Shown one piece after another: positions 11,780-59,988 of a DNA stretch of 64,000 bases (the stretch's first letter is position 1; every line of letters starts with the position of its first letter). A model generated the notes under the pieces. The model saw only the letters and a program-made list of their open reading frames with translations. It did not search any database and was not told the DNA's origin. Source of the stretch: a virus; the IMG/VR virus record IMGVR_UViG_3300002835_000015, positions 64,001 through 128,000 of that record; one strand, given 5' to 3'. The translations under genes and the position numbers were made by a program.

Positions 11780-13351
11780 TTAAATTTCATGAATCTTATC
11801 TACTATAAATGATGTATCTTTATCACTTACTGACCCACAGAAAATTAAGTTGTTTCCTTCATATAGAATATATTTATACTTTTCACGGGTCTTTGGAAAT
11901 ACTATAACACTGTCTAATATGCACGTATCATCCTCTATAGTCAAAAATGACATGACCTGACCCTTAGATTCGCCTTTATTGATGGTATAATCTGATAGTC
12001 TTTGAATGTTGGCAACTACGCACATATCCTTACCCTTCTTGCCATTGATTATTTCTTTGCAAGTTGTGTTAGCAGCAGAAGTGTCAGAAGTCTCAACCTT
12101 CGTCATTGTAACTGGACATCCTAGAAATTTGACCTCTTGATCTATAATCCAAGTTGGATCGTCTTCTAGATCATACGGTGGACTTACTAATAGTTGTATT
12201 TCATTTTCTATAGCCTGCTTCCTGTCAGCTTTGCTAGTTCCACCACCATCTTTTTTAGTCGGTGCTAAATCTCTCAAGCAATCCACAAAGGAACTCCACT
12301 TTTTATCACTATAATGATTTAATATCCAAGTCTGTTCTGCTTTGGTGAGAGTTCTATAAATTTCATAATCATAGAGAGCTTTGTTTCTAGTAACACTGCT
12401 CTTGAAATTTCTAAAGAATCCTATTGAGGCTAAAGCCTTGAATGCAGTAGAGCTAATATTTGATCCTATAAAAAGCAAGATTTCAAGCCAAGTAAATTCC
12501 TTTACTGGTTTACTCAAAGTCTTTTCAGCTTCATTTATAGTTTCTATTAACTTATCTCCGGTCGCACCCGTTAGTGACTTTACATCCTTAATACCAAAGT
12601 ATATCTTACCACGCTTAATATTGAACTTTCTTTCAAAGTTGGTTAAGCTTGGAGTTCTTGTCTCAATATCAAATAGTTTTGCCTCAGATATCAATTCATA
12701 AACTTCTTGATGAGGGTCTTGCTTTTCATTCGCGTAGAACAGGTAAGACAAAAAGAATTCCTTGGTGTTATGAGCCTTAAAGTATGCACTCCAATAAGAA
12801 CATACAGCATATGAAACACTGTGGGATTTATTAAATGCGTATCTTGATGATTTCTCAATCCATCCGAAAATTTCTTCTGCGTTCTCCTTACTTACAATTC
12901 CAACACGCTCTGCCCCCGCTATGAATGATTTTTTGACTTCATTCATGAGGTCAGCCTTTTTCTTTCCAATGGCCTTACGAAGAACGTCTGCCTCTTGTAA
13001 ATTGAAACCAGCGATTTTCTCTGCTATACGCATAGACTGCTCTTGATATACAAGAACTCCATATGTTGGCTTTAGAATCTCTTCAAGTGCTGGATGAAGA
13101 TATGTTACTTCTTCTCTACCGTGCTTACGGTCTACATAATGCTGGGTCATGCTTTTCCCATCAACAATTGCTTTCAAAGTTCCCGGCCTAATGATAGCAA
13201 TTAGTGCTGATAGTTCTTCAATATTATTTGGTGCAACTTTTTTAGACCATGATTTTCCAAGGTTACTTTCTAATTGAAAGATTCCCTTAGTCTTGCCTTC
13301 TGCGAACAGTTGCCAAGTTGTTTTATCATTATAGTCTAAATTATTTAACAT
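11780..13351 (-). CDS. dnaE: DNA polymerase III alpha, C-terminal part (fingers, HhH, OB)
   Basis: GIFQLES, RPG, TYGVLVYQEQ, LRKAIGKK, YAFNKSHSVSY; likely start MLNNLDY at 13351. Confidence 0.9.
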   Translation of the reverse strand: MLNNLDYNDKTTWQLFAEGKTKGIFQLESNLGKSWSKKVAPNNIEELSALIAIIRPGTLKAIVDGKSMTQHYVDRKHGREEVTYLHPALEEILKPTYGVLVYQEQSMRIAEKIAGFNLQEADVLRKAIGKKKADLMNEVKKSFIAGAERVGIVSKENAEEIFGWIEKSSRYAFNKSHSVSYAVCSYWSAYFKAHNTKEFFLSYLFYANEKQDPHQEVYELISEAKLFDIETRTPSLTNFERKFNIKRGKIYFGIKDVKSLTGATGDKLIETINEAEKTLSKPVKEFTWLEILLFIGSNISSTAFKALASIGFFRNFKSSVTRNKALYDYEIYRTLTKAEQTWILNHYSDKKWSSFVDCLRDLAPTKKDGGGTSKADRKQAIENEIQLLVSPPYDLEDDPTWIIDQEVKFLGCPVTMTKVETSDTSAANTTCKEIINGKKGKDMCVVANIQRLSDYTINKGESKGQVMSFLTIEDDTCILDSVIVFPKTREKYKYILYEGNNLIFCGSVSDKDTSFIVDKIHEI

Positions 13352-14021
13352 ACAAATTTCCGTCAGCAAAAGCCTTATCAAAGTTCATGTTTTGGTATAC
13401 CGCACGATGAGTTTTCATAAGCTTAATAAATATATTTGCTTCATCTTTAACGTCCTGTAGAGCATCGTGAGCATTGTCAAAACTTAAGCCCATTCTCTCA
13501 CGCAAAGAATCCATGCTTATAGATCTAACACTGGGATCGCTTTCAGTCCAAGCAAATACACTATCCATGATATCTATCTTATAGACTCTACTGAATAGTT
13601 TTTGCTGCTCTCTCTCTTTGTCCCAAGGTCCAAAATCTCTACATAGTCTGTTTATTATGTGCATATCGAAGCCAATTATATTAAAACCAACAGGGATAGG
13701 ATTAAAAAATGGTTCACCCTTCCAGTTGTATTGATCAACAAATTTTGTAAATTTATTCCATACGGACTTTAAGGATGGTGCTAATTCTAATTGCTCCCTT
13801 GTCTTCTTTGTTATCTTTAGAGCTTCATCTTGTATGGGGTCAAATCCAGCCGCTATAGCTTTTTCATCATCAAAAATAGGCTTAATTTCACTGTTGAATT
13901 GCCCCTTCATCTGCAATGTTCTTCCATCTAAGGCAATAGCGGCGATTTGTGTTGGTTGAGTACGATGTGGATTGCGTGATCCTGTTTCAAAATCAAATAT
14001 AATATAGTCTCTATTAGCCAT
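13341..14021 (-). CDS. dnaQ: DEDDh 3'-5' exonuclease (DnaQ/epsilon-like)
   Basis: FDFETG (ExoI), GFNIIGFD (ExoII), AHDALQD (ExoIII). Confidence 0.85.
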   Translation of the reverse strand: MANRDYIIFDFETGSRNPHRTQPTQIAAIALDGRTLQMKGQFNSEIKPIFDDEKAIAAGFDPIQDEALKITKKTREQLELAPSLKSVWNKFTKFVDQYNWKGEPFFNPIPVGFNIIGFDMHIINRLCRDFGPWDKEREQQKLFSRVYKIDIMDSVFAWTESDPSVRSISMDSLRERMGLSFDNAHDALQDVKDEANIFIKLMKTHRAVYQNMNFDKAFADGNLYVK

Positions 14022-15639
14022 TAGATACTCCTGTTAGTTCTTCAATCTTCATAATTTTATCTAGCAAATTGATTCCTAGAACGTCAAACTTTACGTGGCC
14101 CAGTGCCTCTAAGTCTGCCATTTCAAGTCCAGCCACCTTTTCTGACGAGCCTTTTTGTTTTACCATTGGGCATACCTTTTGAAGTGGCTCTGCTGAAATT
14201 ACCACACCGGCAGCGTGTTTGCCTTGAGTTTTAAATGTTCCCTCTATCTGAATAGCTTGTTCAAAATATTCAGCATACTCTCCCTCAAGTTTTCCATCTT
14301 CTGATATTCTACAGAAATCTCTTAGATCCTCAGAGTTATTAATCAAAGCCCACTTAATAATAGATCGATCTTCATCATCCATTTCTGCTAATTGATCTGA
14401 GATTCTTGCTTCGTCTGGTATACAGTTACTTATAGCATTCATTTCAGAGAATGAGCAAGCCTCATTAACACGTAAAACTTCCTTAATAGCACTCTTTCCT
14501 TGAAGTCTTCCAAACGTTAACATTTGGCTAACTCGACTATTCCCATACTTATCTTTTAGATATGCAATAATTTCATCACGCTTAGTACCGGGAACGTCTA
14601 TATCAATATCTGGTAGAGATATATGATCAGCACTGTTTCTTCCAGCGTTATAAAATCGTGCAAATAGAAGGTCAAACTCTATTGGGTCAATCTTCGTTAT
14701 GCCAATTAAATATGAGATTAAACATCCTGCGGCAGATCCTCTACCGGGACCAGATAGCCAACCCATATCATTAACGTGCTTTATAATATCACGAACAATA
14801 AGAAAATATCCGAATAGATTAGCATCTTTAATAACATCAAACTCTTCCTTGAATCTACTCAAATACTTCTGCTTATCTTCTTCGTTTGATACCTTGTTTT
14901 GATCTATTAATATTTTCTTCCAGCCAATACGACATAGTTCCTTGAGATAATCTTCTTCTGATGCCCCTTTTGGACATTCAAATTTAGGCAACATTGGCTT
15001 GCTGAGAATATCGTAGTCTTCACACTGGTCATAAATCTCTTTTAGTTTAGATGAGTCTAAGCCCTTAGATTCGTCTTTGTCTTTAACGTAGAAAGAGTCT
15101 TGCATAAAATATACCAATTTATCCATATGCTCTTGGGGATATTTTGAGTCTACATTTATACCACCGCTGTTGTCTGGCCTAATGCATTTCTTTATTTTTG
15201 GTAGCGTAGTCTTCATATCAGAACATAATAATATTCTGTGAAGTTTGGCATCTTCCCTATTTGTATAATAACTAATAGGCATTGATTCAGTAGGAGCATT
15301 ATAGACACTAATCAAATTTTTACTGATATTTGTGTTGTCATATTGCTCTGGTAATTTACCATTTTCATCTAGTGATGAAACCATCTCAATTAACTCGTAC
15401 CACCCATCTTTATTCTTAGCAAAAAGTGTAGCAAAATCAAATGAGCATCCAATGATGGGCTTTATACCCTGTTTTTTGCAGGCTTTATAAAAAGCAACTG
15501 CACCAGATAATGTTTTATAATCACAAATACCACATGCTGGATATCCATTATACTTACATTTTTTAGCCAATTCTTCTGGCTTTGAATAACCTTTGAGCAA
15601 ACTGTAATGGGTATAATTCTTCAACGGGAACCAGTTCAT
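14014..15639 (-). CDS. dnaE: DNA polymerase III alpha, N-terminal part (degenerate PHP + palm/thumb)
   Basis: YSLL, GIKPIIG, GPGRGSAAG, PDIDID, GKHAAGVVI, KFDVLG. Confidence 0.9.
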   Translation of the reverse strand: MNWFPLKNYTHYSLLKGYSKPEELAKKCKYNGYPACGICDYKTLSGAVAFYKACKKQGIKPIIGCSFDFATLFAKNKDGWYELIEMVSSLDENGKLPEQYDNTNISKNLISVYNAPTESMPISYYTNREDAKLHRILLCSDMKTTLPKIKKCIRPDNSGGINVDSKYPQEHMDKLVYFMQDSFYVKDKDESKGLDSSKLKEIYDQCEDYDILSKPMLPKFECPKGASEEDYLKELCRIGWKKILIDQNKVSNEEDKQKYLSRFKEEFDVIKDANLFGYFLIVRDIIKHVNDMGWLSGPGRGSAAGCLISYLIGITKIDPIEFDLLFARFYNAGRNSADHISLPDIDIDVPGTKRDEIIAYLKDKYGNSRVSQMLTFGRLQGKSAIKEVLRVNEACSFSEMNAISNCIPDEARISDQLAEMDDEDRSIIKWALINNSEDLRDFCRISEDGKLEGEYAEYFEQAIQIEGTFKTQGKHAAGVVISAEPLQKVCPMVKQKGSSEKVAGLEMADLEALGHVKFDVLGINLLDKIMKIEELTGVSNG

Positions 15640-44283: not shown

Positions 44284-45346
44284 TTAATATTTTTCTCCCG
44301 GTGTTTTTCCAGCTAAAATTTTTAGCAGTTGTAATTCCATATTCGTTAACAGTTAAACTATTAGTTATATTTAGTTCATGGATATTTTGCATATATTTTA
44401 TAGCAATATTTTTGGCCCTATTATCTATCCTAGCCCAATTACCTTGACCGTGAAACCATTTACCGTCATATGCAGTTTCGGTTTCTTCTATAGGTATTAA
44501 CAATGCATTATTAGAGTTACAAAATTCTGTATGGGCAGAATAATCTGTGGCTATTACACGTTTTCCACAAGCCATCATTTCTAATAGCTCTAAATTCCAC
44601 CCCTCTGCTCTTGCTGGAAATATTCCACAATGAGTTTGGGACATTATATTATACACTTCTTGCTGAGTGTTCTGTCGTGGAATAATATGTATTTTAGATC
44701 CCAGTTTAGACTTTTTATATAGATTTATCCATTCATTTTGTTCCTGCTCTGTGCAGAAAGGATTTTCGCACATCATGAATAGTTCTACATTATCATCTTC
44801 GTTAAACGCTGAGTTAAATATATCAACTAATACATCATGCCCCTTTCTTATTTCCCATTTACCACAATTAAAAAATCTTGTTGGACTATTTTGTGGCATT
44901 TCAGACGGCTGAAAAATAGATGAATCAACACCCAGCGGGACTACTATAACGTTAGATTCTTCAATAGTTGTATTATTTAATACTATTTTCTTAGCCCATT
45001 CTGAACATACAAACACTCTATCTAAAGATTGAAGTTGATGCTTTTCAAAATCATTAAACTTATCCAACTCAAATATCGGAAACCCTATTCTGGTTCCTTT
45101 GCCAGCAAATTGTGCCATATCATGTTGATGCCATATTTTAATACATGGGGCATTATAATCATAAAACTGAGAATTTTTTATACATTTAGAGATTATGTCG
45201 GCATCTTCTTGATTTGTTACTTGAGGTTGTCCTATCATGAATAAAGAAACTTCTATGGATTTAGATAGTTCTTTGATAATGTTTAAGGATGATACGCCGT
45301 AACCAAGCTGATTAATTGGGGCCATTACATTAATTTTAGTATTCAT
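44273..45346 (-). CDS. GT4 glycosyltransferase
   Basis: VPLGVD, GKWEIRKG, EGWNLELLEMMACG. Confidence 0.85.
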   Translation of the reverse strand: MNTKINVMAPINQLGYGVSSLNIIKELSKSIEVSLFMIGQPQVTNQEDADIISKCIKNSQFYDYNAPCIKIWHQHDMAQFAGKGTRIGFPIFELDKFNDFEKHQLQSLDRVFVCSEWAKKIVLNNTTIEESNVIVVPLGVDSSIFQPSEMPQNSPTRFFNCGKWEIRKGHDVLVDIFNSAFNEDDNVELFMMCENPFCTEQEQNEWINLYKKSKLGSKIHIIPRQNTQQEVYNIMSQTHCGIFPARAEGWNLELLEMMACGKRVIATDYSAHTEFCNSNNALLIPIEETETAYDGKWFHGQGNWARIDNRAKNIAIKYMQNIHELNITNSLTVNEYGITTAKNFSWKNTGRKILNVI

Positions 45347-45896
45347 AGTTTATTTTGTTATTCCTAAAAAAGAACCATCGTTTTAGTTTTGTTACGTCTT
45401 CTTCTTGATTTATATAGCTAAGATAGTTTAATACCTCGCTCAGAGAATTAAATATATGTTCGTGTGGCAACATAAAGAATAACCAATTGGGTGCTTGGCT
45501 TTTACCCTGTTCGCACCATATTAAAACTGGCTTTTTCTCCCTATTAGCTGTTACTATCTCTTCGTATGTTCCACAAGCATGAATATTAAGATCAATATGA
45601 GCAATAATGAAGTCAGATATATCTACACATCGCAAATCTGCACTGCGTATTATACCAAATTTCTCTTTGATCTTTTCATACTTTTCTGTCTCTTTGTAGT
45701 ATTCTATCCAGTGCCTAGTCTCTTCATCTTCAATAACCCCATTGATTGGTTTGTCGCACGGGTCAATGACAGTTACCCCTAGTTCGTTTAGATATGGAGT
45801 TATTCGCTTACGCCAAGTAGTTCCACCGTCTGGAACTCTATCCATAGCACCAACTAAATAAACTCTCATGCCAACTAAGTTATTTATTGAATCCAT
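45336..45896 (-). CDS. Nucleoside 2-deoxyribosyltransferase / nucleotide N-glycosidase family protein
   Basis: VYLVG.M, WR, DP, DL..V..SD..IA, GT.EE...A...KPV. Confidence 0.75.
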   Translation of the reverse strand: MDSINNLVGMRVYLVGAMDRVPDGGTTWRKRITPYLNELGVTVIDPCDKPINGVIEDEETRHWIEYYKETEKYEKIKEKFGIIRSADLRCVDISDFIIAHIDLNIHACGTYEEIVTANREKKPVLIWCEQGKSQAPNWLFFMLPHEHIFNSLSEVLNYLSYINQEEDVTKLKRWFFFRNNKINYEY

Positions 45897-46287
45897 TGTC
45901 TATGCTCCACCATACTTTGTTAATACCTAGAGATCTCATTATTCTATCACACTTATCGCACGGCTGACTACATCTTAATTCGCCACGCTTATTTAGTCTT
46001 ATAATAACCATTTTGAGGCTATTATCTATATAATATTTACCCCATAAACGAGATATTAGATCAGTTTCTGCGTGAAAGTAAGGGTATTCACTATCTGTAT
46101 TGAACCTTTTAGCTAATACTAGTGCTTGAGTATGGGTTTTCTCTGGATTGTTTTGCCCTATTGCAAGAAGTTTATTTTTCTTGTATCCAAAAGCAAAGTG
46201 AAAAAATTTATTCTTAGTTTGTCTTTCCTCTTTGGCTTTAGGTAAAAGGCTCAGTGCTATTTCAAGTGATTGATCTATTATATTCAT
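45880..46287 (-). CDS. Zn-dependent cytidine deaminase-superfamily protein
   Basis: HAE...PCDKC. Confidence 0.75.
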   Translation of the reverse strand: MNIIDQSLEIALSLLPKAKEERQTKNKFFHFAFGYKKNKLLAIGQNNPEKTHTQALVLAKRFNTDSEYPYFHAETDLISRLWGKYYIDNSLKMVIIRLNKRGELRCSQPCDKCDRIMRSLGINKVWWSIDNGFNK

Positions 46288-46784
46288 GAGAAATCTATAG
46301 TATTGATAGTAATAAGCTTGATAAATTCTTGAATACTAGTTACTTTATGATTATCAAAAGCTTGTTTGGTTTTCTGTTTTGCTTCTGTCTTTTTGTATCC
46401 AAGTGCTACAAGCGAACTAATACAATCATTGTAAAGTTGCTCATCTCGTACTGGTTTTGGTTTAGGGGTTGTTGTTGTTGGTGTAATAGTAGGTATGGTT
46501 GCCGGTTGATTAATGACGGGGTTATTTTTCTTAGGTTTGGGCTTATCTGCAACGGTGCGTTTTGGTACACTCTTGACAGCACAGCTTTGTGTTGGTACAA
46601 CCTTTACTTGTTTTGGTTTTTCAATATACGTGTAGTCTTCTACATATCCAATAACAAACTTATCTAGCTTGTTGAAGCTAATTGATTTGCCCTCAATGTA
46701 TGCCTTATATGTATAAAAAATTGTTAAGCAAATGATAACAAATGCCCAAAAATTTCCAACGCTAGGATGTGGCTGTGGGTTCAT
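46284..46784 (-). CDS. Membrane-anchored protein with RuvA C-terminal-like domain
   Basis: N-terminal TM, Pro/Thr/Lys linker, DCISSLVALGYKKTEA...IKL. Confidence 0.6.
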   Translation of the reverse strand: MNPQPHPSVGNFWAFVIICLTIFYTYKAYIEGKSISFNKLDKFVIGYVEDYTYIEKPKQVKVVPTQSCAVKSVPKRTVADKPKPKKNNPVINQPATIPTITPTTTTPKPKPVRDEQLYNDCISSLVALGYKKTEAKQKTKQAFDNHKVTSIQEFIKLITINTIDFS

Positions 46785-46801
46785 AATTTTTTCCTACTGT
46801 G

Positions 46802-46829
46802 ATCATACCATAACTATCGTCACAGTCAA
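46802..46829 (-). promoter_or_regulatory. Sigma70-like promoter with CGATA spacer motif
   Basis: TTGACT-N16-TATGAT with TGn extension. Confidence 0.6.
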
Positions 46830-46840
46830 GACGCAAACTT

Positions 46841-46877
46841 AAAAAAAATGGCCCGAAGCACAAGGCGACGGGCCATT
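46841..46877 (-). terminator. Rho-independent terminator after ssb
   Basis: AATGGCCCG...CGGGCCATT then T-tract. Confidence 0.75.
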
Positions 46878-46901
46878 CCTTAGACAGATTGACTATCCAT
46901 T

Positions 46902-47234
46902 TCACTCTTTAGAGTCTTGCCCTACAATTCCAGACGGGCCTAAAGAAATTTCATCTGCCATTACGCAGATAGAGTTCTTTTGATTCCCATCCTTATCTTG
47001 ATAATCATCAATTTTTAGCTTCCCTTGAACGCCAACCAATCTGCCCTTCTTTAGATGATCCTTTAATGCTTCAGCCATTTTTCCAAAACATAGGATATTT
47101 AAGAATAGAGTATCTTCATTGCGACGATCATTCACGGCCATACGAAACTTTGCCATAGCAGTACCCTTTTGGGTTGTGCTTAATTCCGCATCCTTTGTTA
47201 ATCTGCCACAACCTAACCATGTATTAATATTCAT
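46902..47234 (-). CDS. ssb: Single-stranded DNA-binding protein
   Basis: GRLTKDAEL, FGKMAE, LKKG..VGVQGKL. Confidence 0.85.
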   Translation of the reverse strand: MNINTWLGCGRLTKDAELSTTQKGTAMAKFRMAVNDRRNEDTLFLNILCFGKMAEALKDHLKKGRLVGVQGKLKIDDYQDKDGNQKNSICVMADEISLGPSGIVGQDSKE

Positions 47235-47238
47235 GCTA

Positions 47239-47574
47239 TCATACCTCCAATGCTGAACGAATTCTACCTCTTACTACCTGTGTATTGCCACGATTATAAG
47301 TGCCTAGTGTAGCACTGTATACGTTTCTAGCAATTGATCGCGGAATACCCAGAAGTCGAGCAGCGAACTCTGTATCTTCACGATTATTACGAAAAAATCC
47401 AAACCCAGACTTGTGTGCTAAAGCAGTAATTGGATTTAATGTTACACCCTTGTAGTGACCACTTTGAATGGTGGCAACAACACGATTATGATTAATATCC
47501 CAATGATATGCATCAGCTAGGTTTGATAGTCTGTCAAAAAATTCAGTATAATTCATATCAATCTCCTTCTTCAT
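47239..47574 (-). CDS. Hypothetical protein
   Basis: ORF in operon. Confidence 0.65.
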   Translation of the reverse strand: MKKEIDMNYTEFFDRLSNLADAYHWDINHNRVVATIQSGHYKGVTLNPITALAHKSGFGFFRNNREDTEFAARLLGIPRSIARNVYSATLGTYNRGNTQVVRGRIRSALEV

Positions 47575-47797
47575 TGCTATTTAATTCTTCGAAAACTTGA
47601 ACATCTTTAACGCCATTTTGCACATAAGCCTTTAGTTGCTCAATCTCATTTTGAATTAAAGCCTGCTGCTTTGTCAATTCTTCAATCCTTTGAGCAACAT
47701 TTTGCAAATGTGCTTTTGCCATTTCTACAACCGTCATATCTTTTTCTCCTTGTTCTTTCACCTTGTTATACCCATTAGTACTGTCAAAAACAATCAT
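47558..47797 (-). CDS. Small coiled-coil protein
   Basis: Heptad pattern; start may be MTVVE. Confidence 0.6.
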   Translation of the reverse strand: MIVFDSTNGYNKVKEQGEKDMTVVEMAKAHLQNVAQRIEELTKQQALIQNEIEQLKAYVQNGVKDVQVFEELNSNEEGD

Positions 47798-48024
47798 GGT
47801 TTTTGTTCATATGTCATATAATCTAAAACTTGAAGATGAGTCCAATTAGGTTGATAATTGTCATCTGTTCCAAGTCTAGCAATATCTATATATTCACTTT
47901 CTAGCCTGACTACTAGTTCTGCAAGAAATTCTAGCTTGTTTGAGTAAACACATTCCTCTATCATATCTAGAGTCTCTTTTACTGTGCGTTTATTATTAGT
48001 ACTCATGTTTGATACTCCACACAT
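47794..48024 (-). CDS. Hypothetical protein
   Basis: ORF in operon. Confidence 0.55.
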   Translation of the reverse strand: MCGVSNMSTNNKRTVKETLDMIEECVYSNKLEFLAELVVRLESEYIDIARLGTDDNYQPNWTHLQVLDYMTYEQKP

Positions 48025-48440
48025 TCGACATCAGATTCATGAAATAATTCCCTTGATAATTCAAAGTCTTTTTCCCATCTATCTATTTTGTTTACGAATG
48101 AAACTATTCTGCTTATTCCTGACTGTATTATTAAACCAGCACATCTTGGACATGGCATAAATGGGTAAGTATATAAAGTACATCCTTCTACAGATTTATT
48201 AGCAAATAAGATTGCATTTATCTCGCCGTGTACAATAATATTATACTTTGTATCTCTCTCTTTCAGTCTATCATTATCTTCTATATGTTTAGGAAAACCA
48301 TTATATCCAACAGAGACTATTCTATTATTTTTATCAACTATGACAGCACCAACTTTAGTCGATGGATCTTTAGACCATCCAGAAATAAATTTAGCTAAAT
48401 CAAGAAACCTATAATCCCATTTAGACATTATAATTCCCAA
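48003..48440 (-). CDS. dCMP deaminase
   Basis: SKDPSTKVGAVI, GYNGFP, HGEINA, PCPRC. Confidence 0.9.
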   Translation of the reverse strand: MGIIMSKWDYRFLDLAKFISGWSKDPSTKVGAVIVDKNNRIVSVGYNGFPKHIEDNDRLKERDTKYNIIVHGEINAILFANKSVEGCTLYTYPFMPCPRCAGLIIQSGISRIVSFVNKIDRWEKDFELSRELFHESDVECVEYQT

Positions 48441-48994
48441 ACTATTTGATAGCCATCAAAAATAGGATCTATACCTATGTTCTTCATAAATTGTTTAACG
48501 TATTTACCTTTACCGTGTCCATTTTCAAAATTGTCATCTACAGCAATTATAGTTCCGGCAGAACATGAAGGCCAAATACATAACAATTCCATAATATGGT
48601 GCATAGATGATGGGTGAGGATTGTTATGATCAAAATCGTAAGAATCTAGATACAAAAGATCTACTGTTTTGTTTATTTCTCTCAACTGTTTATTCATATG
48701 AAATAAATAAGAAACTGAATCAGAACATATAAGACTTATATTTTTAGTTATACTTTTTGCTAATTCTATATTATATGGATTTATATCTATTGAATAACAT
48801 TGACCTTTATTGTCTTGAATAAACTTATCAAATATTACAGTTGACATTCCAGCACCGTAATCATTTACTTGTCTTACACAGCCAGTTTCTATAATCAACG
48901 GACTATCTTTTTTTGATAATTTGTCAATCATCAATTGAAAAGATTCTTTGCGTAATCCATTATTGTTTATTATTTCTTGTAATTCCAGTTCCAT
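48428..48994 (-). CDS. Class I SAM-dependent methyltransferase-like protein
   Basis: IIETG, SIDI, DS, DLLYLDS, VDD. Confidence 0.7.
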   Translation of the reverse strand: MELELQEIINNNGLRKESFQLMIDKLSKKDSPLIIETGCVRQVNDYGAGMSTVIFDKFIQDNKGQCYSIDINPYNIELAKSITKNISLICSDSVSYLFHMNKQLREINKTVDLLYLDSYDFDHNNPHPSSMHHIMELLCIWPSCSAGTIIAVDDNFENGHGKGKYVKQFMKNIGIDPIFDGYQIVWEL

Positions 48995-50037
48995 TAAATG
49001 CTCCTATCAAAGTGTACCCTATTAACTTTAACAAATTCTGCACATTTTGGAAGGTCTTTTATACTATCTGCCCCAACATATGCACAAGCACTTCTGATAC
49101 CACCCAATATATCATCAATGACATCTGATACCTCACCCTTATATTCTACCGTCTTAACGCGACCTTCACTGGCCCTATAATTTTTAATTCCACCATATTT
49201 TTCCTGTGCTGCATGGGAACTCATCCCATAGAATGTTAAAACCCTACTACCGTTTATATGACTCCATTCTCCACTGCATTCCTCTGTACCAGCAATCATG
49301 CCTCCAAGCATAACAAAGTCTGCACCAGCAGCAAATGCTTTTACAACGTCTGCTGGAGTCCTACAGCCACCATCTGCACAAATTAGACCCAAGTGCTTGT
49401 GTTGTGCTTTTAATCCATGGGCAGCGTGAGAGCATTCATTAATTGCTGATAATTGAGGATATCCTACTCCAGCTTTTAGTCTTGTTGTACATGCTGATCC
49501 CGGCCCAATTCCAACCTTAACAATATCAACGCCACCGTGAAGAATTAATTCATGAACCATTTCGGGAGTACATACATTGCCAGCCATTATAACGGGCCTA
49601 GTTCCAAACTTCTCCCTTATTTTTGCACAGTGGTCTACAAACTTATCTGTATATCCATTAGCAACATCAATACAGATATTTGGTATATCTTCTATTCTAT
49701 CAACTATCTTCCTAAGTTTGCTGACTTCTTCATCATTAATTCCCATGCTATACCAAAATGTATTTAGATCTTGGAGATTTTCTATATAATCTTCTATATT
49801 ATAATGTTTGTGTAGGCATGTGATACAATTTTTCTTTGATAGAGATTCTGCCATTTCGAATGTGCCAGTGGTATCCATATTCGCGGCCATTATAGGAACA
49901 CCACTCCACTCCAAAGATGAGTGAAAAAATTTAAACGTTCTTTTTACATCGACCAAGGACCGTGAGGCGGCTCGGGATCTCTGTGGAACGAGTAATACAT
50001 CATCGAAATCAAGTTTTGTATCGTTATTAATATTCAT
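48994..50037 (-). CDS. guaC: GMP reductase
   Basis: LDFDDVLLVP, AANMDTTG, DVANGY, KVGIGPGSACTTR, FYGMSS, YRASEG; 347 aa, no CBS. Confidence 0.9.
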   Translation of the reverse strand: MNINNDTKLDFDDVLLVPQRSRAASRSLVDVKRTFKFFHSSLEWSGVPIMAANMDTTGTFEMAESLSKKNCITCLHKHYNIEDYIENLQDLNTFWYSMGINDEEVSKLRKIVDRIEDIPNICIDVANGYTDKFVDHCAKIREKFGTRPVIMAGNVCTPEMVHELILHGGVDIVKVGIGPGSACTTRLKAGVGYPQLSAINECSHAAHGLKAQHKHLGLICADGGCRTPADVVKAFAAGADFVMLGGMIAGTEECSGEWSHINGSRVLTFYGMSSHAAQEKYGGIKNYRASEGRVKTVEYKGEVSDVIDDILGGIRSACAYVGADSIKDLPKCAEFVKVNRVHFDRSI

Positions 50038-55202: not shown

Positions 55203-55839
55203 ATAATTTTTCTTTTGCTATTATCTCATAATATTCTGGAGTAAATTCGCCTTTTCTCATAGCTTCATTGTACCAAGGCGTATCTTGTTTGTCAAACAGT
55301 ATTCTGTGTTGCATACTGCTATTTAATCTTTTAGACCCATTTACCTCAAATTCCCAAGGGTTTTCTGAACCGTGGTTGATCAAGCAAGATTTAAAAAACT
55401 CTTTATTCCATATAGAAGCTTGCATTGATATTGTATATAAACTATGCTGACGCAATGCATACATGTTTCCTATTATATGAAACTTATTATATAATCTACT
55501 ATCTTCATGAATTCCTAATCTATTTATTCCCTGCCGACATATTTGAATATACATATCAAATTGTGACTTTGGTATAGTTTTTCTCAAAAAATAATCATCC
55601 TGTAACCATAATACGTACTCTGTATCGACTCTATCTAGAGCATACTTTAGACAATCTGAATAAGGTATTTTGCCCGGTAAAATAGATTTAAAACCATAGT
55701 CGTTAAATTCTAGGGTTTCTGATAAAAAATATCTTGGAATATCTATATTGTGGTCCCAGTATCTGTTGAATAATAGACCAAATTTGTTCCATAGGAAATT
55801 GTATTTATCGCAAGTGCCGACTAATAAAGTAATGTCCAT
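55192..55839 (-). CDS. Putative GT-A-like glycosyltransferase
   Basis: TCDKY, YVLWLQDDYFL, IWNK, PWEFE. Confidence 0.55.
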   Translation of the reverse strand: MDITLLVGTCDKYNFLWNKFGLLFNRYWDHNIDIPRYFLSETLEFNDYGFKSILPGKIPYSDCLKYALDRVDTEYVLWLQDDYFLRKTIPKSQFDMYIQICRQGINRLGIHEDSRLYNKFHIIGNMYALRQHSLYTISMQASIWNKEFFKSCLINHGSENPWEFEVNGSKRLNSSMQHRILFDKQDTPWYNEAMRKGEFTPEYYEIIAKEKLYDI

Positions 55840-55849
55840 ATTGATTTTC

Positions 55850-55856
55850 GTGTATA
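55850..55856 (+). promoter_or_regulatory. GTGTATA candidate late promoter
   Basis: On plus strand, about 45 nt upstream of the only internal plus-strand gene. Confidence 0.6.
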
Positions 55857-55900
55857 ATTGTAATGAGTACTCGATTTTAGAACCTTATAAGGAGATTTTT

Positions 55901-56269
55901 ATGCCTTTTTCACCAACACAATCTGGTAACATGTTTCCCGGCAGAAACGTATTCTTCCCCGGCATTATAGCTGGTCCATCTACTGTCACTGGTACTAGTG
56001 GCATATTCATCCCATTTGCCGCATTAGAAAGTTATAATGTTGGTAATAGTGGTGAAATCGGAGAATTAGTATATTCAATAGTAGATAAGTTTGTAACTGG
56101 TTTAAACAATTTATCTGGTGTTCCTACGCTTGCAGATGATCTCCCAAGTAAGTTTAGTGCTTCAAGACAAACATCGTTAACTTCAGATAACACTGCCACA
56201 AAAACATACTCAATGAGTTTTGATCTTAATGTTTCAAGTGCCAAGTATGATCTACAAAGCGAAGCATGA
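55901..56269 (+). CDS. Putative virion protein (lone plus-strand gene)
   Basis: AAGGAG SD before ATG 55901; Ser/Thr/Gly-rich. Confidence 0.7.
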   Translation: MPFSPTQSGNMFPGRNVFFPGIIAGPSTVTGTSGIFIPFAALESYNVGNSGEIGELVYSIVDKFVTGLNNLSGVPTLADDLPSKFSASRQTSLTSDNTATKTYSMSFDLNVSSAKYDLQSEA

Positions 56270-58327: not shown

Positions 58328-58901
58328 CTATTGATCCATAATGTTTTACTGCCGCCCTAGCATTTTGCTTGTGGGTTACTCTCTCTAAATTATCAAGGCT
58401 ATTATTAGACTTATTGTGATCTATATGATTGACGATGAATAACTCTCTTAGAAATACTTTGATAGATTCTGGAGTCTTTTTATAGTCTTTTGCATTAATT
58501 TCTTTTGGTAGATTTTGATCAAATGGCTTCCAGCTATCAATTACTAATTTATGAACTCGACAATTTAATGATTGTCTTTTAGCTCCATATCTTCCTTTTG
58601 AGCTATATTCATAATCAAAAGTACCACAATCAAATGAAATATCCACCTTATTATATCCTTGCTTACATATACGAGGTTTTAAAAGTTTTTTATATGAAGT
58701 ATCAATAATGCAAATACGATAACCACTTTTTTCCTCATTAATTCTTTTAAAATGAGAGTATATATTACCACTTTTTGAAACGCTGTATTCTTTTATTGGA
58801 ATTCCATTCAAGATTACTGTGGTTAACTCTTCTTCATCGTCTACTTGATCTTCTGAAAAATCAAACTCTAGTTGATTCATTTGCATATAAAGCCCTCCCA
58901 A
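58317..58901 (-). CDS. NUMOD4-like HNH endonuclease
   Basis: YSVSKSGNIYS, VHKLV, VNHIDHNKSNN...NLE. Confidence 0.8.
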   Translation of the reverse strand: MGGLYMQMNQLEFDFSEDQVDDEEELTTVILNGIPIKEYSVSKSGNIYSHFKRINEEKSGYRICIIDTSYKKLLKPRICKQGYNKVDISFDCGTFDYEYSSKGRYGAKRQSLNCRVHKLVIDSWKPFDQNLPKEINAKDYKKTPESIKVFLRELFIVNHIDHNKSNNSLDNLERVTHKQNARAAVKHYGSIDED

Positions 58902-59151
58902 GTGCTATTCTAACACCAAGTTTCTTATCATAGTTATCTTCTGTGCTACAAATAGCAAGTCCATGAAAACGTTCGCCAGTAGGAGAATCAATAATAACTT
59001 CGGTAGAGCCACCCTTGGTATCTGGGCCAATAATTCCATCAGTATAACCATAGACTCTCTTACCGTTTTGCCAAGCATGATATCCATTATAAAGACGGTT
59101 GTGAAAAACTTTTACTTTGTATCCATTGTCTTGCAATTCTTTGACAGTCAT
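58861..59151 (-). CDS. Hypothetical phage protein
   Basis: KGG.T...G.AICS..DNYDKK.G..IA..RA. Confidence 0.7.
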   Translation of the reverse strand: MTVKELQDNGYKVKVFHNRLYNGYHAWQNGKRVYGYTDGIIGPDTKGGSTEVIIDSPTGERFHGLAICSTEDNYDKKLGVRIALGRALYANESTRV

Positions 59152-59176: not shown

Positions 59177-59263
59177 CGGAAGAAGTAGGATTCGAACCCA
59201 CGGAAGTTTTTACGCTTCTTCTGATTAGTAATCAGATGCATTAGTCCACTCTGCCATTCTTCC
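59177..59263 (-). tRNA. tRNA-Ser, anticodon ACT
   Basis: Acceptor GGAAGAA/TTCTTCC + G73; anticodon arm TCTGA-TTACTAA-TCAGA; long variable arm; T arm GTGGG-TTCGAAT-CCTAC; CCA not encoded. Confidence 0.9.
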
Positions 59264-59268
59264 TACTA

Positions 59269-59297
59269 ATTGTATCTCTATTAGTTGCTATTGTCAA
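59269..59297 (-). promoter_or_regulatory. Sigma70 promoter for the tRNA
   Basis: TTGACA-N17-TACAAT, 5 nt before tRNA G1. Confidence 0.75.
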
Positions 59298-59298
59298 G

Positions 59299-59646
59299 TG
59301 GAGGCGGCGAGAATCGAACTCGCGTCCAGAATAATTTCAATATAAACATCTACATCCTTAGTTAGTTGTTCTCGCACAGCTAACAAAGCTAACAGAATTA
59401 TCTGTGTCAGATTGAATACAATCATTACCCCCATTTATGTTTGGTGAGGATACCATATCCGATTATCGGAGTCAGCATGATTGGGCAATACGGTTCATGC
59501 CACCGCACTCTTGCCTAACTAGGTCAGGCAGCGAGAGCGAAACGAGTTTCGCCAACTAACATTTTAATCGACTTTTATACTGGCCGGTCGATTAACCAGT
59601 GGATGCCATCTATATATCCGTTTACCTGTCGATACCTTTCGCCCCC
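59299..59646 (-). ncRNA. ssrA: tmRNA, tag (A)GETRFALAA
   Basis: 5' GGGGGCGAAAGGTATCGAC, 3' GACGCGAGTTCGATTCTCGCCGCCTCCA with G3:U70; TAGTT then GGC GAA ACT CGT TTC GCT CTC GCT GCC TGA. Confidence 0.92.
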
Positions 59647-59988
59647 TTATTTTAAGAAGTTTATTAAACCGCTTGGCCCATTATAGCCAATCTTCCTTCC
59701 CTTCTCTTTACCGTTTTCGAAAACCACAAAGGCAGGGATCGTCTTTATATTGTAGCCTTCAACGATGTCTTTGTCAACATCAAAATCTACGTCTACGATG
59801 GTATAATTTTTTACAATCTCTGATAGTTGTGGGTCATTCTTCATATCATTCTTAGCTATGTGGCAGTATTTACACCAATCGGCGGAAAATATGATTAAAA
59901 CCTTTTCGTTTGTATTATCAAAAGCAAAAACAGAAGCGATAGATATTAAACACGAAATCAAAAGGATAGATACTAGTGTATTTCTCAT
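59647..59988 (-). CDS. Thioredoxin-family protein with signal peptide
   Basis: FSADWCKYC, IP; hydrophobic N-terminus ending VFA. Confidence 0.85.
   Translation of the reverse strand: MRNTLVSILLISCLISIASVFAFDNTNEKVLIIFSADWCKYCHIAKNDMKNDPQLSEIVKNYTIVDVDFDVDKDIVEGYNIKTIPAFVVFENGKEKGRKIGYNGPSGLINFLK

Follow-up and report, generated by a model that had tools for sequence, protein, structure and literature searches.

A phage tRNA-Ser with anticodon ACU, placing A34 in the split Ser-Arg codon box, belongs to a widespread phage tRNA family

The serine codons AGU and AGC are canonically read by tRNA-Ser(GCU), which carries G at position 34 of its anticodon, and, according to a 2021 review, the Ser-Arg split box universally lacks A34 (PMC8007984). 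A34 is present in tRNA-Arg(ACG), the substrate that TadA converts to I34. In E. coli, TadA requires a YUACGAA stem-loop with a UACG core; single-position mutations within this motif eliminated all or nearly all editing, yet 26% of the natural sites carry one departure from the seven-base motif, and overexpressed TadA edits further off-motif sites (PMC12255301). A natural, unmodified A34 in bacterial-type translation is represented by the Mycoplasma tRNA-Thr(AGU), as cited in PMC11066159. That tRNA serves a four-codon family box, in which loose reading is harmless, whereas the tRNA described below serves a split box.

The only direct decoding data for the ACU anticodon come from an engineered M. 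jannaschii tRNA expressed in E. coli, in which reassignment reached 9.4% at AGU and 0.36% at AGG and was below detection at AGC and AGA (PMC11066159). Sequencing of its cDNA gave T alone at position 34, indicating that inosine was not formed in a loop otherwise identical to that of tRNA-Arg2 (PMC11066159). These data describe a synthetic, tyrosine-charged molecule with an archaeal Tyr body, unlike the natural gene considered here, which shares with it the same anticodon in a YU-ANN-AA loop. In phages, tRNA-Ser(ACU) was listed in 2024, without further comment, among the specific tRNAs of the Sinorhizobium jumbo phage AP-J-162 (PMC11242549); beyond this one listing, we found almost no mention of a phage tRNA-Ser(ACU) in the literature searched. 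GenBank record MN988521.1 of Rhizobium phage RHph_TM30 annotates a tRNA-Ser(act), and equivalent matches are found in phages TM40 and Y65.

The stretch of DNA analysed here (the window) is 64 kb in length and corresponds to positions 64001–128000 of an IMG/VR record of 158,798 bp, which represents an uncultured phage and is rated 100% complete. ARAGORN identified two RNA genes within it, a tRNA-Ser(act) and a tmRNA, both of which were confirmed with Rfam. The tRNA gene is located at positions 59177–59263 on the minus strand; it is 87 nt long, does not encode its CCA end, and matches the full tRNA model RF00005 (model positions 1–71) with a score of 56.4 bits, against a gathering score of 29. 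The cloverleaf is the minimum-energy fold of the sequence. It comprises an acceptor stem with seven of seven pairs perfect (including G1-C72, G2-C71 and A3-U70) and discriminator base G73, a 3-bp D stem containing C11-G24, a perfect 5-bp anticodon stem closing a 7-nt loop (T-T-A-C-T-A-A in the DNA), an 18-nt variable arm whose 4-bp stem places the molecule in class II, and a 5-bp T stem. The anticodon ACU, within the loop UUACUAA, is located at 59227–59229, with A34 corresponding to the complement of base 59229. ARAGORN, Rfam and a reading of the sequence itself therefore agree with the first-pass annotation, which had described a class II tRNA-Ser with an ACU loop and A34 at this base.

The identity elements for seryl-tRNA synthetase (SerRS) in E. 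coli are G73 together with G1-C72, G2-C71 and C11-G24, and a class II body with G73 specifies serine rather than leucine or tyrosine. This bacterial-type set is present in the window tRNA. Since SerRS ignores the anticodon, charging of the ACU tRNA should be unaffected. Beyond its class II body and these identity elements, the window tRNA shares U33, U36-A37-A38 and the codon box with bacterial and phage tRNA-Ser(GCU), and a similar D-arm is present in 72 viral GCT tRNAs (see below). It differs from tRNA-Ser(GCU) in having A34 rather than G34, in being expected to read AGU only rather than AGC and AGU, and in belonging to a separate family of sequences (at most 82% identical). These features support a real and, to all appearances, functional tRNA-Ser gene that brings A34 into the split AGN box.

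Across the whole genome ARAGORN called 12 tRNAs, with no Ser(GCU) gene among them. A second tRNA-Ser(act), 68% identical to the window copy, is located outside the window (genome positions 138286–138372), within a tRNA cluster that runs Trp-Ser(act)-Asn-Gln-Thr. Also outside the window, on the minus strand at genome positions 144909–144986, is a tRNA-like gene of unnamed type for which ARAGORN reports a two-base ‘aa’ anticodon (Leu or Phe) and which scores 45.7 bits against the Rfam tRNA model.

Conservation was assessed in an alignment of 44 distinct ACU tRNAs, in which the D-arm (including C11-G24) and the anticodon loop are invariant through the design of the search and the stems were free to vary. 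Cloverleaf pairing is found in 99.0% of the cells of this alignment, as compared with 36–53% in slid controls. Both sides have changed in 16 of the 24 pairs, and none of 500 shuffles reached the observed paired fraction and compensation. G1, G2, C71 and C72 are invariant and G73 is nearly so, and the pairs of the variable arm covary. Judged from these sequences, the ACU homologues are under purifying selection for a working tRNA. Identities among them range from 62 to 99%, and do not exceed 82% between any of them and the sampled GCU tRNAs; by sequence comparison, the phage ACU tRNAs are a large, old and separate family. The earlier description of the gene as a G34A variant is contradicted by this distance: a nearest GCU tRNA at 82% identity led us to reject a recent G34A mutation, and the cultured-phage tRNAs nearest to the window tRNA are all Ser(UGA). 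Clustering of the loci by shared proteins produced one large component, in which ACT and GCT lineages were not separated.

A search of IMG/VR with a pattern combining the D-arm with TTACTAA returned 64 contigs, all of them called tRNA-Ser(act); the corresponding pattern with TTGCTAA (the GCT form) returned 72. A pattern free of the D-arm (TTACTAA, 22–32 nt, GGTTCGAATCC) matched at least 118 contigs, and 62 of the 66 new loci were tRNA-Ser(act), with many different D-arms. In sum, tRNA-Ser(ACU) is present in at least 126 IMG/VR contigs (64 + 62 loci). A search that specified the D-arm and allowed any anticodon gave 30 ACT, 32 GCT and 18 others (mostly UGA) among the first 80 viral matches listed, indicating that the preference for ACT does not stem from the pattern used; for this one D-arm class, the ACU tRNA is about as common as the canonical GCU form. 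The GCA-anticodon matches that share this D-arm turned out to be ordinary tRNA-Cys genes of 78 nt and were discarded.

The usual gene order around the phage tRNA-Ser(ACU) is Ser(act)-Asn-Gln-Thr. The counterparts in RHph_TM30, TM40, Y65 and AP-J-162 have the same anticodon and a class II Ser body and likewise lie among phage tRNAs (with Lys UUU and Arg UCU nearby). They belong to other phage families and hosts, whereas the genome examined here carries two divergent copies, one of them in a promoter-bearing cassette adjoining a tmRNA gene. The RHph_TM30 tRNA is 79% identical to another member of the ACU family (a comparison with a tRNA other than the window copy). Close relatives of the present phage were not found among GenBank phages, with rIIA at most 34% identical. 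The kind of tRNA is thus widespread in phages, scarcely discussed in print and already present in public annotations.

In cellular genomes, covering 185,579 species, the D-arm pattern matched only three contigs. The first belongs to a Planktophila metagenome-assembled genome (MAG); its tRNAs form a phage-like cluster, and it looks like a phage contig binned into that MAG. The other two are from Planctomycetota and have an encoded CCA, a terminator, surrounding DNA of 58% GC and a full Ser set that includes GCU. Within this phylum, a chromosomal tRNA-Ser(ACU) was found in 4 of 201 sampled genomes. The Planctomycetota carriers are loci L157, L158 and L324–L327 (genomes G001, G002, G130, G168 and G185), with the CCA and terminator seen in L157 and L158; genome G002 also encodes Ser GCU, UGA, CGA and GGA. 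The body of the Planctomycetota ACU tRNA is closer to the phage ACU tRNAs and to the same organism's Ser(UGA) than to its Ser(GCU). The first-pass annotation had called the anticodon very rare, which holds for cells but not for phages, given its presence in the IMG/VR contigs and in cultured Rhizobium phages.

Other A34 tRNAs were seen in the phage tRNA clusters (L077–L148 and L191–L256), namely Thr(AGT) in 16 cases, Leu(AAG) in 5, His(ATG) in 4, Gly(ACC) in 2 and Phe(AAA) in 1, and Ser(ACU) is therefore not the sole ‘missing’ anticodon used by phages. A further class II tRNA with a Ser-type D-arm, located at positions 1055–1145 of a 151-kb viral contig (L298), carries the anticodon CTA (labelled Pyl by ARAGORN) and is likely an amber suppressor.

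Inspection of the DNA surrounding the window tRNA revealed a sigma-70-type promoter (TTGACA-17-TACAAT; 59269–59297, minus strand) that matches the consensus at 11 of 12 positions. It ends 5 nt ahead of the 5' end of the tRNA, and there is no gap between its −35 box and the tmRNA 3' end. The exact hexamer pair occurs three times in the window, against an expectation of 0.01; the near-consensus promoter noted in the first-pass annotation is therefore real as a motif. One of the other two occurrences (59749–59777, minus strand) lies approximately 100 nt upstream of the tmRNA gene. The tmRNA (59298–59646, minus strand; RF00023, 108.8 bits) encodes the tag GETRFALAA. On the other side of the tRNA lies a 96-residue ORF (58861–59151, minus strand), the start region of which forms the 3' boundary of the tRNA cassette, as defined by comparison with a relative.

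Relatives of this locus were found via rIIA, and the RNA genes upstream of rIIA vary among them, comprising Ser(act), tmRNA, Arg(tct) or Tyr(gta). The closest relative, L170 (rIIA 98% identical), has the tmRNA gene and lacks the window tRNA copy. In that contig, the region just 5' of the start of the downstream ORF resumes approximately 30 nt past the tmRNA, such that a single block of approximately 100 nt is gone, containing the −10 hexamer, start region and tRNA; a diverged stretch alone is retained at the site of the −35 box. The tmRNA is found without the tRNA in L170 and L190, the tRNA without the tmRNA in L187, and both together in the window and in contig L073. The window tRNA and its promoter are an accessory cassette, probably transcribed separately, in a variable region upstream of rIIA, and the tmRNA is an independent cassette that is not part of it. 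The presence of the tmRNA varies independently of that of the tRNA, and relatives also display tag variants with the sequence GETQLALAA.

The genome contains 1020 AGT, 519 AGC and 978 AGA codons, with AGT accounting for 25% of all serine codons. Per 1000 codons, the plus-strand structural module contains 26.5 AGT and the minus-strand module 16.9, and the structural module is also richer in serine. These values are in keeping with part of an earlier suggestion, that the anticodon is tuned to AGT-rich virion genes. They leave the choice of A over G unexplained: when we tested for a stronger AGT bias in ACT carriers the opposite was found, with an AGT share of 0.749 at GCT loci versus 0.615 at ACT loci, and codon supply therefore does not explain A rather than G. 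Within this genome the T-ending share of AGY codons (0.66) is lower than that of AAY, GAY and TAY (0.76–0.79). The count of 7 AGT versus 1 AGC originally given for positions 55901–56269 is correct, for an ORF that may itself not be a gene; in its longer form (55748–56269, plus strand) it lies among minus-strand genes and overlaps minus-strand ORFs.

We believe the best explanation, to which we assign a probability of roughly 60%, is that the window tRNA is a functional phage-encoded Watson-Crick reader dedicated to AGU, which supplements the tRNA-Ser(GCU) of the host. Starting from the gene, structure, conservation, cassette and codon counts observed above, we infer that the host RNA polymerase would transcribe the tRNA from its own sigma-70-type promoter and that the host SerRS would charge it with serine. 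If A34 remains unmodified, as the published work on TadA and on the engineered tRNA suggests, it would pair by Watson-Crick geometry with AGU and with essentially no other codon. The probable benefit to the phage would be added decoding capacity for AGU, which is otherwise read via G:U wobble by the host's sole AGY reader, tRNA-Ser(GCU). Such a function would be supplied twice, by the window cassette and by the 68%-identical copy in the main tRNA cluster, in a genome with no GCU tRNA. The wider sample points the same way: a GCT tRNA is absent from every one of the 126 ACT loci, and ACT is the sole Ser tRNA in five relatives of 94–100% completeness.

An alternative that we regard as unlikely is a role in counter-defence, in which the ACU anticodon would sustain decoding of serine AGY codons after an anticodon nuclease of the host has destroyed tRNA-Ser(GCU), or would render the phage tRNA resistant to cleavage. 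Defences that cleave tRNAs can be neutralised by phage tRNAs, as exemplified by the T5 tRNAs that resist such systems. Carriers of ACT and of GCT are not distinguished by their codon usage, so selection for A34 unrelated to codon supply is possible, and a mobile accessory cassette in a variable region is a setting often seen for counter-defence genes. The consistent absence of GCT tRNAs from ACT loci, noted above, would also fit this reading. However, a nuclease with specificity for tRNA-Ser(GCU) is not known to us, and the GCT form is carried by many related phages. Furthermore, if the tRNA reads AGU only, the 519 AGC codons would be left undecoded once the host tRNA had been destroyed (PMC11066159).

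A second alternative, which we consider improbable, is that the tRNA is partly or wholly converted to ICU by deamination, either by the TadA of the host or by a TadA variant of relaxed specificity, and would then read AGU, AGC and, to some degree, AGA. To our knowledge, TadA is the only bacterial A34 deaminase. The window tRNA resembles tRNA-Arg(ACG) in A34, in U33-A34-C35 and in A37-A38, and its loop UUACUAA corresponds to YUACGAA at six of seven positions. The exception, U36 in place of G36, breaks the UACG core, so that the TadA motif is absent; the class II Ser body and the split box, in which inosine would cause Arg-to-Ser misreading, are further differences from tRNA-Arg(ACG). Editing might nevertheless be accommodated, since approximately one quarter of natural sites have a single mismatch to the motif and overexpression of TadA extends editing to further off-motif sites (PMC12255301), and it would provide for the 519 AGC codons of a genome that has no GCU tRNA. 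Those codons, however, can be served by the host tRNA-Ser(GCU), and misreading of the 978 AGA codons as serine would make inosine at position 34 a heavy cost. The requirement for the four-base core, in a motif in which single mutations abolish or nearly abolish editing (PMC12255301), and the lack of inosine in an ACU anticodon within a tRNA-Arg2-like loop in E. coli (PMC11066159) also argue against deamination. The presumption in the first-pass annotation that the tRNA is left unedited is consistent with both sets of published observations.

A phage-encoded A34 deaminase likewise received no support from a search of the ORFs with PF00383, which returned two candidates only. The first (48003–48440, minus strand) has dCMP deaminases as its best PDB matches and scores 21.6 bits against the NCBIfam TadA model, for which the cut-off is 150; we rejected it as TadA and assign it as a dCMP deaminase. 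The second (45880–46287, minus strand) is a sub-threshold, deaminase-like ORF without a PDB relative, with nothing to support a role as a tRNA deaminase. Both are located in a minus-strand block of nucleotide-metabolism genes (45336–50037) that also contains a nucleoside 2-deoxyribosyltransferase-like ORF (45336–45896), a methyltransferase (48428–48994) and a GMP reductase/IMPDH-family ORF (48994–50037), all on the minus strand, and that may point to DNA base modification. Elsewhere on the same strand the DNA polymerase is split (11780–15639): consecutive segments of phrog_405 are matched by ORFs 14014–15639 and 11780–13381, which flank a third ORF.

A third possibility, very improbable in our judgement, is a neutral passenger: a tRNA gene on a mobile cassette that contributes little or nothing to translation, or that acts in some other process. 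The window copy is dispensable, being absent from the closest relative (L170), its presence varies among close relatives as described above, and it is redundant with the copy in the tRNA cluster. A passenger would not be expected to show compensatory changes that conserve structure over very diverse copies, an anticodon kept across long divergence, or a dedicated strong promoter. Finally, an assembly or sequencing error that turned GCT into ACT can be dismissed without recourse to reads, since the independent contig L073 carries an identical tRNA next to this tmRNA, near-identical copies are present in several other contigs, a divergent second ACT copy exists within the same genome, and the anticodon recurs in well over 100 further contigs.

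Returning to a dedicated AGU reader, we offer a tentative extension, possible although not one that we favour, that A34 has been selected because it creates a private decoder. A tRNA restricted to AGU could speed the translation of AGU-rich late genes without helping host messages, or could work on after a defence system removes tRNA-Ser(GCU); the ban on A34 in the split box would then be a rule of cells that viruses break routinely and cheaply.

Phages clearly maintain under selection a tRNA with A34 in the Ser-Arg split box, a combination that has been described as universally missing (PMC8007984). They provide a natural system, with the cultured Rhizobium and Sinorhizobium phages as a point of entry, in which to ask what keeps A34 out of cells and whether, when unmodified, it discriminates between codons in vivo as strictly as synthetic-biology experiments suggest. 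To this system the present genome adds two divergent copies of the tRNA in one phage, and a clean presence/absence cassette with its own promoter.
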